From: Escherichia phage vB_ecoS_OzMSK
DNA length: 45,053 nt
Sequence record: PQ659294.1
Direction: 5' to 3' (one strand)
Made by a program: the position numbers and the translations under genes. This document shows, one piece after another, positions 28,378-31,386 of this stretch. The notes under the pieces are model-generated. The model did not search any database, was not told the origin of the DNA, and worked only from the letters and a program-made list of their open reading frames with translations. Within the stretch, counting starts at the first letter, position 1. Each line of letters starts with the position of its first letter.

Positions 28378-28812
28378 ATGCACGTAATTACCGGTCAGAT
28401 TCGCCGCGCTCCGTTCACCAAAGAAGGTCAAAACGCCAATGGTAACTGGAAGATGTTTGCGGTTGATTTGAGTGAGAGATACAAGGATAAAGATGGTCAA
28501 ACTCAGTACACAAACTACCGCGCAGTACTTTTCGCCAAAGAGTCGATGCTGGATTGGTATAACGAAGCATTTCAGGAAGGTAAAGTTGTCAGCCTAAGCG
28601 CCGAGAGTTTGTCGGTTGATGTTCGCGATAAAGATGGCAAGACTTACGTTACAGTTAATATGAATAATCCTCGACTGGAATTTAGTCAGCGAGGTGATTC
28701 AGCGACACAACAGCAGATGCAAAACCAACAGCGTCAGCAACAGAAGCAGCAGCAACAACAGCGACAACAGCCACAACAGCAAAGTCAATTTGACGACGAC
28801 ATTCCTTTTTGA
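28378..28812 (+). CDS. ssb: single-stranded DNA-binding protein
   Basis: OB-fold-like N-terminal region, Gln-rich linker and acidic C-terminal tip DDDIPF typical of bacterial-type SSBs. Confidence 0.8.
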   Translation: MHVITGQIRRAPFTKEGQNANGNWKMFAVDLSERYKDKDGQTQYTNYRAVLFAKESMLDWYNEAFQEGKVVSLSAESLSVDVRDKDGKTYVTVNMNNPRLEFSQRGDSATQQQMQNQQRQQQKQQQQQRQQPQQQSQFDDDIPF

Positions 28813-28847: not shown

Positions 28848-31298
28848 TTAATAAATATTTACATCTGGAGAAATTCCAACGCAAGTCCAGCGCGAGAACT
28901 TGGCATCATAAACGAATGACATTCCAATTTGTCTCCCCTCAGATGGAGTTGTGAATGAGCCAACTCTAAACTTATTGCTAAATGAAACGGATGGACGCCG
29001 GCCGCCTGAAAGGTTGTAAATTATGAAGTCTATCCTCTGTGCATCTCTTGCGTTATCCTGAACATCAATAACTACAGGACTTGAATCAATTACAACGGTT
29101 GCAAGACTTGTTCTTAGTGGGTTAAATAGAATACTACCACCAGATAGCTGAACCCTTTTTTGAACGGGGTTAGAAGAATCCGTGTACAACCCTGTGTTTA
29201 TATTATACAAAGCCTCCCATGAATTCAGTTTTGAGTCATCAATCACTGTTGCATGCTGCCCAAATAGTATAGTCCCTTCTACATGGTTTCCTGAAGCTCC
29301 ATTATAAAAATCAAAACCAGAAGCTGATCCACCAACAAACCTATTAGCTCTAGCTCCGTTAACTTGAATTGATGGAGACTGAAAACCTGACTTCAGGCCA
29401 TTGAACAAGTTTCCTGTCGCCGTCTTCCTAAGAACGACGTCACCACCAGAGTTGACCTCAAGGTCGCAACCAATAACAGTGTTAGTTACTGCTGTTATGC
29501 CTAGGTCTGACTCATGACCGAAAGAAAACCCATACTTATTTCCCTCGCTGGTTCCACCAATAAATGTCGTATTACTGCAGAATGTAGCCTCAATTCCTGA
29601 TTCTGTTACATGCTCGCAAGTTGGGTTAATAAAAAGATCTGCAGATGTGCCGCGGAAGTTCACAGCGCCAGCCTCTGCGTCAATTAATATGCCGTACGTA
29701 GGCGTCGTTGTGAAGGTCTCAACGTTACCAGAGCACACAAAGTTATTATGCACGCATAGCTGAGTCCACCAGCAGTGTAAACCAGCCCTTCTAATGTTCG
29801 TAGCCATTAGGTTGTCAAAGCATGATGATATGACACCCCTTAATGAAAAGCCATCACTAGCATACCCATTCCCATCGACAATGATGTTGCTCATATATGA
29901 GTTGTATGCCCAATAATCTAGGTTTACATCCCTATGATCCATTTGGATGACGTAATCATGAGGTCCGCTAGTTAGTGAGATTCTTGCGCCTTTCTCACCG
30001 ATAATTGTTGCTGGCCTCAGAAAGTTTAATGGCTGAGATGTAAGATAATTACCTTTAGGAATATGTATAGCAATAGCGTTGTTTCTAGATGCCTCAACAG
30101 CGGCAAGCAATGCCTGAGTATCATCTGTTACACCATCACCAACAGCGCCAAAGTCCTTCTTAATATCGACATGAGTAAGTAAAGCGTTTACCTCTGGCTT
30201 TGAGTAAACATCAAGATTTGTTCTTGCTGCTGACTTATTTGCAACATCAGAGAAATTCAATGATTTTTGAAAAGTCTCATTTTTTGAATAAACATCAAGA
30301 TTTGTTCTTGCTTCTGACTTATTTGCAACATCAGAGAAATTCAATGATTTTTGAAAAGTCTCATTTTTTGAATAAACATCAAGTAAGTTTCTAGCCCTCG
30401 ATGCCGTAGCTCCACCTCCGGACTTGCCAGCCTCAACCATCACCATTTCCCTACCTGGTGCATAAACCCTGCTTCCGGGCGCTCCCACAAACTGAATGTA
30501 AATCTCCCTGCTATACTGGTTGCTTGTTGAAGATTGGCCTACAACTCGCAAGGAGTGCGTGGTTGTATTGCTTGACTTTGATATTACCTGAATGCATAAA
30601 GCAGCAATTGATGTTCCAAATGTTGAGATTATGTCATTTGGAGCATTTATCATTGATGAAACGTTAACCATATAAAGGCCACCGGATTTAAAAACAAATT
30701 CCTGCCAATCAAAATTGCTTATCAATGGCGTAGTGTCTGTCGCCAATCCATATCCGGCAAGAGTTACCAACGTTCCGGCATCCCCGGCGTTATTAATTGC
30801 TTTAATCGTCTGATCTCTTGCTGCAGTGGTCGTGTCTCTTGCACTAATAGCAGTAGCGGCGCTCTCTTCGGCAGCAATCTGGCTAGCAAGAGCCTCAGCA
30901 GCTCCAGTGGTGGATTGTTTTGCAAGCTGCTCGAAGAGAGGCCAGTCGAAAGTGTCTTGACCAATAAATTGCAACAATCCTTCGATTGATGTCTCCTTTG
31001 ACTGGTAGTAACGCAAAGTCTCTGCTACATCCTGAGCCAACCCCTGAACGGTAATTCCATCGTGCGCAAGAATTGCATAACCAGTTCCGGAAGGAACAGT
31101 TTCAGAGTTAGGGTTGTAAACATTAATCTGAGTATCGCTGATGATTTCAGAGATGGTATAAATCTTCAGGGGGCTGGTTTTAAAAATAATGGTTGCACCT
31201 ACGCGAATAAGTGTAAGCGGTGCTTTCCATGTTGTACCCACGCCAGTTACCTCGCCATTTGCGGCCAGCGACGCTGTTCCTAAGTCATAAATTGCCAT
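28848..31298 (-). CDS. lateral tail fibre / tailspike with right-handed beta-helix (pectate-lyase-like) domain
   Basis: 816 aa from ATG 31298 (GGAG RBS); motif DIKKDFGAVGDGVTDDTQAL typical of pectate-lyase-type tailspikes; internal 28-aa tandem repeats. Confidence 0.75.
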   Translation of the reverse strand: MAIYDLGTASLAANGEVTGVGTTWKAPLTLIRVGATIIFKTSPLKIYTISEIISDTQINVYNPNSETVPSGTGYAILAHDGITVQGLAQDVAETLRYYQSKETSIEGLLQFIGQDTFDWPLFEQLAKQSTTGAAEALASQIAAEESAATAISARDTTTAARDQTIKAINNAGDAGTLVTLAGYGLATDTTPLISNFDWQEFVFKSGGLYMVNVSSMINAPNDIISTFGTSIAALCIQVISKSSNTTTHSLRVVGQSSTSNQYSREIYIQFVGAPGSRVYAPGREMVMVEAGKSGGGATASRARNLLDVYSKNETFQKSLNFSDVANKSEARTNLDVYSKNETFQKSLNFSDVANKSAARTNLDVYSKPEVNALLTHVDIKKDFGAVGDGVTDDTQALLAAVEASRNNAIAIHIPKGNYLTSQPLNFLRPATIIGEKGARISLTSGPHDYVIQMDHRDVNLDYWAYNSYMSNIIVDGNGYASDGFSLRGVISSCFDNLMATNIRRAGLHCWWTQLCVHNNFVCSGNVETFTTTPTYGILIDAEAGAVNFRGTSADLFINPTCEHVTESGIEATFCSNTTFIGGTSEGNKYGFSFGHESDLGITAVTNTVIGCDLEVNSGGDVVLRKTATGNLFNGLKSGFQSPSIQVNGARANRFVGGSASGFDFYNGASGNHVEGTILFGQHATVIDDSKLNSWEALYNINTGLYTDSSNPVQKRVQLSGGSILFNPLRTSLATVVIDSSPVVIDVQDNARDAQRIDFIIYNLSGGRRPSVSFSNKFRVGSFTTPSEGRQIGMSFVYDAKFSRWTCVGISPDVNIY
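30199..30385. repeat. 84-bp direct tandem repeat (two copies plus a partial third) inside the tail fibre gene
   Basis: AAACATCAAG recurs at 30206, 30290 and 30374; copies differ at about one position; encodes ARTNLDVYSKNETFQKSLNFSDVANKSE twice. Confidence 0.85.
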
Positions 31299-31318
31299 TG
31301 TGTAAATTCTCCATTTGT

Positions 31319-31338
31319 AAAATAGCACGAATTGCTAA
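31319..31338 (+). promoter_or_regulatory. class-A motif copy in plus orientation, 21 nt upstream of the minus-strand tail fibre start
   Basis: AAATAGCACGAATTGCTAAG; the only copy oriented against the adjacent downstream gene. Confidence 0.4.
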
Positions 31339-31363: not shown

Positions 31364-31386
31364 TAAAAAAACCTCCCAAAGGAGGT
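31364..31386 (-). terminator. rho-independent terminator for the primase transcript
   Basis: Minus strand reads AACCTCCTTTGGGAGGTTTTTTT. Confidence 0.65.

Follow-up and report, generated by a model that had tools for sequence, protein, structure and literature searches.

Repeated modules and in-frame duplications have been described in several other fibres. The Rod and Shaft of the R1 and R2 pyocins consist of interdigitated trimeric helix-plus-turn repeats, which have been argued to allow adjustment of fibre length by duplication of the motif (Buth et al. 2018, PMC6116203). The fibre protein gp92 of phage P7-1 is a slender trimer, about 410 Å long and about 25 Å thick (PMC12697256), and in Enterococcus phage EfV12-phi1 a 1.8-kb in-frame tandem duplication in a fibre gene arose repeatedly in laboratory coevolution (Wandro et al. 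2019, PMC6365445). For the Drexlerviridae, the layout of the lateral tail fibre locus has been described, with conservation limited to the fibre's far N-terminus (BASEL study, PMC8594841). Here we describe a tandem repeat of 84 nucleotides (nt) in the predicted lateral tail fibre gene (28848-31298, minus strand) of Escherichia phage vB_ecoS_OzMSK (PQ659294.1), whose whole 45,053-nt sequence is referred to as the window. After rotation, the window nearly coincides in sequence with Escherichia phage Msk (MW057918.1; 45,053 bp; Drexlerviridae, Braunvirinae; host Escherichia coli C), and we call the phage Msk throughout. Comparison with its relatives makes it very likely that the repeat is a genuine and evolutionarily very young in-frame tandem duplication of one 28-amino-acid (aa) rod module in the neck of the lateral fibre. 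Relative to an earlier note, which had reported the repeat from the sequence alone, the analysis adds the ancestral allele and a proposed mechanism, identifies the unit as a very common but uncurated rod repeat, and places it at a cassette junction.

The repeat array and its junction

Tandem Repeats Finder returned one strong array, at 30199-30383 (period 84, 2.2 copies, 98% matches, 0 indels, score 356), in frame with the minus-strand open reading frame (ORF) 28848-31328. In the register of the duplication, the 84-nt unit matched the minus strand at 30216-30299 with 0 mismatches and at 30300-30383 with 1 mismatch, and none of 100 dinucleotide-preserving shuffles gave any match. The repeated region occupies 30198-30401 on the minus strand and is made up of two complete units of 84 nt and a partial third of 36 nt; gene positions are numbered from the ATG at 31298, so that a window position equals 31299 minus the gene nt. 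The first unit, U0 (30401-30318, gene nt 898-981, SRARNLLDVYSKNETFQKSLNFSDVANK), and the one unit of a relative, P0003, have the same DNA sequence (100% identity). The extra copy, U1 (30317-30234, gene nt 982-1065, SEARTNLDVYSKNETFQKSLNFSDVANK), is a hybrid of the ancestral second-box region and the ancestral first unit, and the partial unit U2 (30233-30198, gene nt 1066-1101, SAARTNLDVYSK) is the junction box, after which unrelated sequence begins. The NETF..ANK parts of U0 and U1 are identical at 66 of 66 nt. A single base on the minus strand, at 30313, tells the two full copies apart; the window has T at this position (GAA, Glu), whereas MW057918.1 has G (GCA, Ala). In MW057918.1, KSAARTN is found in both units and the repeat is perfect for 95 nt, and the NCBI protein P0123 has KSA in both units. 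The earlier note had described two full copies and a partial third of an 84-bp unit, differing at about one nt, and the array, the shuffles and the single mismatch at 30313 bear this description out. The 28-aa module that it gave (ARTNLDVYSKNETFQKSLNFSDVANKSE) corresponds to this unit read from a different phase, and its end coordinate, 30385, falls within 2 nt of the measured repeat end, with the coding repeat in codon register reaching 30401.

A simple-sequence contingency locus, with many copies of a frame-shifting unit of about 1-9 nt, was rejected, the unit here being 84 nt long, present in 2.2 copies and frame-preserving. A 15-bp "repeat" reported by the same program at 31288-31321 is a weak resemblance across the ribosome-binding site and start codon, and no feature. 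Antisense to the repeat, a 64-aa plus-strand ORF (30200-30394) has an internal repeat of its own (..KHQDLFLLLTYLQHQRNSMIFEKSHFLN.. twice); this ORF is a by-product of the duplication and probably not a gene.

One unit is present in each of the eight close relatives that share the C-terminal domain, seven of them full-length and one truncated by its contig. P0126 (788 aa) is 96.3% identical to Msk across its full length, and the sole gap in the alignment corresponds to Msk aa 306-333 (28 aa). At the DNA level, the metagenomic P0003 is 97.6% identical to Msk up to the repeat and 99.6% after it, with the two aligned blocks overlapping by one unit and exactly 84 nt missing. One unit each is also present in P0124, P0125 and P0127-P0130, which are full-length (782-799 aa) and share the C-terminal domain. 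Among the 56 cluster representatives with this linker type, 55 have a single unit and Msk is the sole one with two. Because P0003, P0126, the other full-length relatives (P0124, P0125 and P0127-P0130) and 55 of the 56 representatives are all single-unit, the single-unit state is, as judged from these alignments, ancestral. The duplication had previously been called recent on the identity of its copies, and the gaps in P0126 and P0003, together with the eight single-unit relatives, now support this by comparison.

The allele with one unit contains two LDVYSK-coding boxes at a distance of 84 nt, CTTGATGTTTATTCAAAA and CTTGATGTTTACTCAAAG, which share 11 exact nt. Read off the Msk sequence, this 11-nt box (CTTGATGTTTA, coding for LDVY) is found three times on the minus strand, at 30373-30383, at 30289-30299 and at 30205-30215, the second copy being the duplication junction. 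The first 18 nt of U1, TCAG(A/C)AGCAAGAACAAAT, are the sequence that precedes the ancestral second box, and from the box on U1 continues with the sequence that follows the first box. The ancestor had one full module between two LDVYSK-coding boxes 84 nt apart, a state still found in close relatives. Because U1 is a hybrid that switches within CTTGATGTTTA, the junction sequence suggests that unequal exchange or slipped mispairing (replication slippage) within this 11-nt core gave rise to the second full module. The phage's own Erf-type annealing protein and exonuclease, encoded next door, may have helped, and their annealing on such short homology is plausible. The product of the duplication is a near-perfect direct repeat of 95-101 nt. 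Long direct repeats recombine and are prone to loss or expansion, and the Msk repeat should therefore be unstable genetically and could shrink back to one unit or grow further. The locus would provide a base-level example of fibre length change, by box-to-box unequal exchange on 11 nt, with the ancestral allele available for comparison.

The rod module and the cassette boundary

The Msk unit fits a very widespread fibre repeat of the form ..L.K..NLSD(V/L)..K..AR.NL(D/G)(V/L).., with the local form ..NLSDV..K..AR.NLDVYSK; a sister form of the module reads ..P...GGTGA.....AR.NLGLG. The module profile was built from 36 copies taken from homologues and covers 34 positions (consensus ..L.K..NLSD....AR.NL.V). 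Among solved fibres, it matched six repeats of P7-1 gp92 (9ZD7, E 5.5e-34) and two repeats of the fibre of E. coli phage SU10 (7Z47, E 7.6e-15), with further matches in 8HQZ chain d ("L-shaped tail fiber assembly", DT57C structure), 8VBX gp47, the R2 pyocin fibre 6CL5 and Mu gpS 5YVQ. By itself, the Msk linker matched the P7-1 short tail fibre gp92 (9ZD7) in several registers (E 1.1e-9). In the solved fibres the module builds thin trimeric rods, and the sequence similarity suggests that the Msk units may have the same fold.

A search of 1.84 billion cluster representatives with the profile (A2, 34 aa) matched 13,328 proteins at E <= 1e-3, a number that fell to 224 at E <= 1e-30. The longest array, in P0230 (3,287 aa), had up to 27 matched stretches, arrays of 1-7 module copies were present among the homologue hits, and fibres from phages of Pseudomonas, Aeromonas, Vibrio and Enterobacter also had the module in a tblastn search. 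Pfam had no model over the units, either in Msk or among the scanned multi-repeat proteins, NCBIfam had none over the units in Msk or in four multi-repeat proteins (a set partly different from that used for Pfam), and a literature search for the motif as text returned no papers. The module appears to represent a large, uncurated repeat family, present in more than 13,000 cluster representatives and without a model found in Pfam or NCBIfam, and a model for it would improve fibre gene annotation.

With the 108-aa linker as query, a set of 5.8 billion proteins yielded two marine proteins only, the E-values of short queries being too stringent there; longer queries succeeded. Two 127-aa proteins from Tara/ENA marine metagenomes (P0001 and P0002) consist of a short N-terminal segment and three 28-aa module copies (ARTNLDVYSK.EAL..AN.LSDV....), and look like miniature fibres or fibre fragments of marine phages. 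A coiled coil was considered, as 28 residues equal four heptads (28 = 4 x 7). Neither AlphaFold2 (AF2) model had a continuous helix over the units, where confidence was low, and the hydrophobic spacing judged by eye was not heptad-like. A match of the linker to a designed tetratricopeptide repeat protein, 7OBI (E 1.7e-4; ..NL.DVYSKNETFQKSLNF.. versus ..NLGNVYRKQGDYQKAIEY..), was set aside as probably due to repeat or composition bias; the alignment hints at a helix-turn-helix-like local pattern in the linker.

Within fibres of the Drexlerviridae, the module occupies the very point at which the conserved virion-proximal part is linked to many unrelated C-terminal receptor-binding or depolymerase cassettes. 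Homology of Msk to BEK6 and BEK1-1, which have the same linker and other C-termini, stops at gene nt 1100/1101, and homology to P0020, which has another shaft and the same C-terminus, starts at gene nt 1075. The two kinds of homology overlap in a box of about 27 nt, which codes for ARTNLDVYSK. In the 56 representatives, the linker columns are conserved at 90-99%, and the value falls to 10-30% directly after LDVYSK, where at least 18 unrelated C-terminal groups follow. At the nt level the linker forms an island of 80-92% identity, flanked by a middle domain of about 40-55% identity and by an unrelated C-terminal part, and the DNA box is common to fibres with differing N- and C-terminal types. 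An excess of synonymous-site conservation in the linker was not supported, since its nt identity of 80-92% tracks an aa identity of 85-90%, much as in the N-terminal anchor. It is doubtful that the module is a dedicated, portable splice adaptor of Drexlerviridae lateral fibres, in which the conserved coding sequence would be a preferred site of Erf-mediated crossover, the copy number a selectable spacer for the distance of the depolymerase, and the Msk duplication a snapshot of such tuning. If this were true, the junction would be a natural, length-tolerant site for chimeric fibre engineering. The location of a boundary that joins at least 18 receptor-binding cassettes and tolerates an added unit is helpful for the design of chimeric fibres.

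Copy number, consequences and alternative explanations

Module copy number also differs among other fibres. Four pairs differ solely by one whole module: P0031 and P0029 (99.7% identity, 30-aa indel), P0079 and P0078 (99.7%, 30-aa indel), P0165 and P0168 (99.2%, 39-aa indel), and P0021 and P0087 (91.5%, 28-aa indel). These near-identical metagenomic series (P0029/P0031/P0043, P0078/P0079, P0165/P0168 and P0021/P0087) point to independent gain or loss of units, in both the NLSD-type and the GGTGA-type modules. The earlier note had treated the repeat as a hotspot that changes the length of the fibre shaft in frame between isolates, and had named a copy number invariant across relatives as the contrary outcome. 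Copy number does vary, between Msk and its relatives and in the four further pairs, and in-frame length change thus holds at the family level (91.5-99.7% identity), although two units in 1 of the 56 representatives do not indicate a high-frequency hotspot. As for the shaft, the unit is of the rod type, but the repeat is a short neck between the middle beta-rich domain and the beta-helix, at the junction of the exchangeable domain, and not a long shaft.

Assuming the rise of the pyocin Shaft, about 93 Å per 70 residues, the extra copy would lengthen the neck by roughly 3-4 nm and place the beta-helix domain farther from the tail by that much. The additional unit should be nearly neutral, especially on the isolation host of Msk, E. 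coli C, a rough strain, and its functional effect is probably small. One extra 28-aa brick in one fibre is a small, ordinary event and a known way for fibres to change length.

Several points weigh against a genuine duplication of a rod module, or against reading much into it. The linker has a predicted local distance difference test (pLDDT) score below 50 in both monomer AF2 models. The in-frame status is not independent evidence of function, as any box-to-box event gives 84 nt; an intact frame is therefore automatic and not evidence of selection. The neck length given above is an estimate only, and the near neutrality is something we infer. In addition, the two-unit copy number comes from a single assembly lineage, whose record MW057918.1 is flagged UNVERIFIED and carries no annotation, and the duplication junction had no match, either as an exact 35-mer in IMG/VR or as the degenerate pattern TNLDVYSKNETFQK in IMG/VR and the JGI metagenomes. 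These negatives say little because those sets barely contain this fibre type: no relatives of the C-terminal domain were found in IMG/VR or the JGI metagenomes, and a single-unit control pattern, run in IMG/VR only, matched one contig.

The status of the record and the lack of an independent sequence with the junction in these sets are also what would be expected if the true genome were single-unit and the second unit had come from mis-assembly or sequencing. The window and MW057918.1 disagree at nine positions (9746, 9749, 23109, 28857, 29255, 30313, 31365, 44826 and 44997), of which eight are substitutions and one is a homopolymer run that is a base shorter in the window; three of the eight substitutions lie within the 2.45-kb fibre gene. 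These differences may stem from a second isolate, a corrected assembly or sequencing noise; one difference inside the repeat and one in a homopolymer suggest an imperfect consensus quality. The boxes of the single-unit allele, however, share only 11 exact nt, far under usual assembly k-mers, and no graph cycle would be expected from them; moreover, the duplication forms a clean hybrid, keeps the frame intact and is found in both the window and the GenBank version. We consider such an artefact very unlikely. Selection for a longer neck is another matter, since fibre length is clearly evolvable, as seen from the recurrent whole-unit differences in fibres of 91.5-99.7% identity and from arrays of 1 to 27 modules. 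Under such tuning of an adaptive spacer, copy number would be selectable, and a longer neck would reach or process a thicker glycan layer or cooperate better with the central fibre; the in-frame duplications in the Enterococcus phage fibre were repeated and arose only under coevolution with a resistant host (PMC6365445). Against this, two units occur in only one representative of the linker type, and Msk was isolated on E. coli C, whereas such lateral fibres are dispensable for host recognition on strains without O-antigen (BASEL paper, PMC8594841). Adaptive tuning is accordingly an unlikely cause of the Msk duplication.

The two remaining alternatives concern recombination between different sequences. 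The box is the exchange point of N- and C-terminal types, and it is mechanically plausible that the first box of a donor recombined out of register with the second box of a recipient, leaving units from two parents as the scar of a cassette swap; in the window the units differ at one residue (Glu/Ala), and both variants occur in relatives (P0125 KSE, P0126 KSA). P0126 and P0003, however, already pair the same N- and C-terminal parts with one unit, which argues that no swap accompanied the duplication. The units are identical over the 66 nt compared above and the repeat is perfect over 95 nt in GenBank, whereas the linkers of different phages differ by 8-15%, and a swap scar is highly improbable. 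A template and variable repeat pair of a diversity-generating retroelement is scarcely credible, although a phage fibre gene here contains a pair of nearly identical repeats, about 90 nt long, whose sole mismatch in the window (A versus C) refers to the coding strand. The two copies follow each other in direct tandem, in frame and within one ORF, and lie in the neck, mid-gene, rather than at the ligand-binding C-terminus; relatives are single-copy, and the GenBank record is without the mismatch (0-1 differences between copies). No reverse transcriptase was present among the genes examined around the locus, a whole-genome search not having been made. Taken together, a young tandem duplication of one rod module is the reading that we favour.

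The fibre locus and its counterparts in known systems

The gene encodes 816 aa from the ATG at 31298 to the stop codon at 28848-28850 (minus strand, as are all parts of the gene given below), with a GGAG ribosome-binding site at 31309-31312, 10 nt upstream of the ATG. PHROG tail fibre families matched aa 11-344 (PHROG 24092, E 3.8e-157) and aa 391-822 (E 2.4e-178), and the fibre homologues all begin MAIYD. A PDDEXK exonuclease, ERF (E 6.9e-28) and an SSB-like ORF lie on one side of the fibre gene and a zinc-ribbon primase on the other, a gene order that is identical in BEK6, G8 and L007 and agrees with the published layout for Drexlerviridae lateral fibres (PMC8594841). On the basis of the PHROG matches, the MAIYD start, the GGAG site and the locus layout, the predicted product is the distal subunit of a Drexlerviridae lateral tail fibre, with a tailspike-like C-terminal domain; the previous assignment of the repeat to a tail fibre gene is upheld by the PHROG families, the locus and the structure-model matches. 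An intrinsic terminator (31365-31385, minus strand) immediately follows the stop codon of the primase gene, upstream of the fibre gene; it reads CCTCC-TTTG-GGAGG followed by a T-run, which is one base shorter in the window than in MW057918.1. In the SSB-like ORF (28378-28812, ending DDDIPF), five in-frame copies of a 9-bp unit, CAACAGCAA, at 28738-28782 code for the Gln-rich tail, the length of which could vary.

The conserved N-terminal virion-anchor and helical region (aa 1-182, 30753-31298) matched the N-terminal parts of three solved depolymerases from Klebsiella phages, 7VYV, 7VZ3 and 7LZJ (E 5e-35). Invariant residues within aa 1-100 are common to 41 homologues, the nt identity of the first ~100 codons to relatives is mostly 78-100%, and AF2 was confident over aa 1-80. 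Within the helical region, a patch of about 90 nt at ~30789-30878 (fibre aa 141-170) is 83-85% identical between Msk and P0003, with flanks of ~100%, which suggests a small recombination tract. A middle beta-rich domain follows (aa ~190-298, 30405-30732; beta strands with pLDDT 80-90), which is divergent between relatives, with an nt identity to BEK6, BEK1-1 and G8 of only ~40-60%. Beyond the repeat, the exchangeable C-terminal cassette (28851-30197) is a predicted right-handed, pectate-lyase-like beta-helix, as indicated by PF12708, AF2 and Foldseek. PF12708 matched ORF aa 391-465 (46.3 bits versus a cut-off of 27), and in a second AF2 model, from an alignment of 42 sequences, the C-terminal part was all-beta with pLDDT >90 from about aa 379. 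The full-length model was poor overall (pLDDT 45), and the linker and C-terminus were not taken from it. Foldseek of the beta-helix model gave a probability of 1.0 to the CBA120 TSP3, Sf6, HK620 and phi29 gp12 tailspikes and to polysaccharide lyases/epimerases, with template modelling (TM) scores of 0.3-0.5. Since the N-terminus matches an anchor and the C-terminal beta-helix resembles tailspikes and lyases, the protein is a fibre-anchored, tailspike-like putative enzyme, whose C-terminal cassette is presumed to be a glycan depolymerase or receptor-binding domain.

The Msk fibre can be set beside several known systems. P7-1 gp92 (9ZD7) and the SU10 fibre (7Z47) share with it the tandem module ..L.K..NL(S/A)D(V/L)..K/V..AR.NLG(L/V), of which gp92 has six copies. 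These phages, a myovirus and a podovirus, have fibres with other N- and C-terminal domains than Msk and periods of about 30-35 aa versus 28, and their copies are old and diverged, whereas the Msk duplication appears fresh. In the R2 pyocin fibre 6CL5, the profile matched a single unit at chain positions 252-278, weakly (E 4e-4); by our own arithmetic this would correspond to about residues 559-585, inside the Shaft (529-598). The pyocin repeats, unlike the Msk module, are too short and irregular for detection at the sequence level. Depo32 (7VYV/7VZ3) and DpK2 (7LZJ), lateral fibre depolymerases from Drexlerviridae Klebsiella phages, combine an N-terminal anchor homologous to Msk aa 1-182 (E 5e-35) with a beta-helix depolymerase at the C-terminus, whereas their middle regions and catalytic domains have no sequence homology to those of Msk.

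The cassette boundary has parallels in other phages. In the T-even phages, conserved motifs in gp37/gp38 reportedly mediate the exchange of receptor-binding domains, a finding attributed to Tetart et al. in 1998. With the exchange motifs of E. coli tailspike phages, as in Msk, highly variable receptor-binding parts are bordered by a short conserved segment, exactly where homology between phages breaks off (Pas et al. 2023, PMC10408124). The T-even and tailspike motifs belong to other phage groups and have other sequences, and in Msk the conserved stretch is itself a structural repeat unit. The DNA of the Msk box is no more conserved than its protein, and a dedicated role at the DNA level is only putative. 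The duplication in EfV12-phi1 resembles that in Msk in being tandem and in frame; it lies just upstream of a carbohydrate-binding region, and its copy number is variable in populations. Its unit is 1.8 kb long, with a measured heterogeneity of copy number, whereas the Msk unit is 84 bp long and comes from a single genome.

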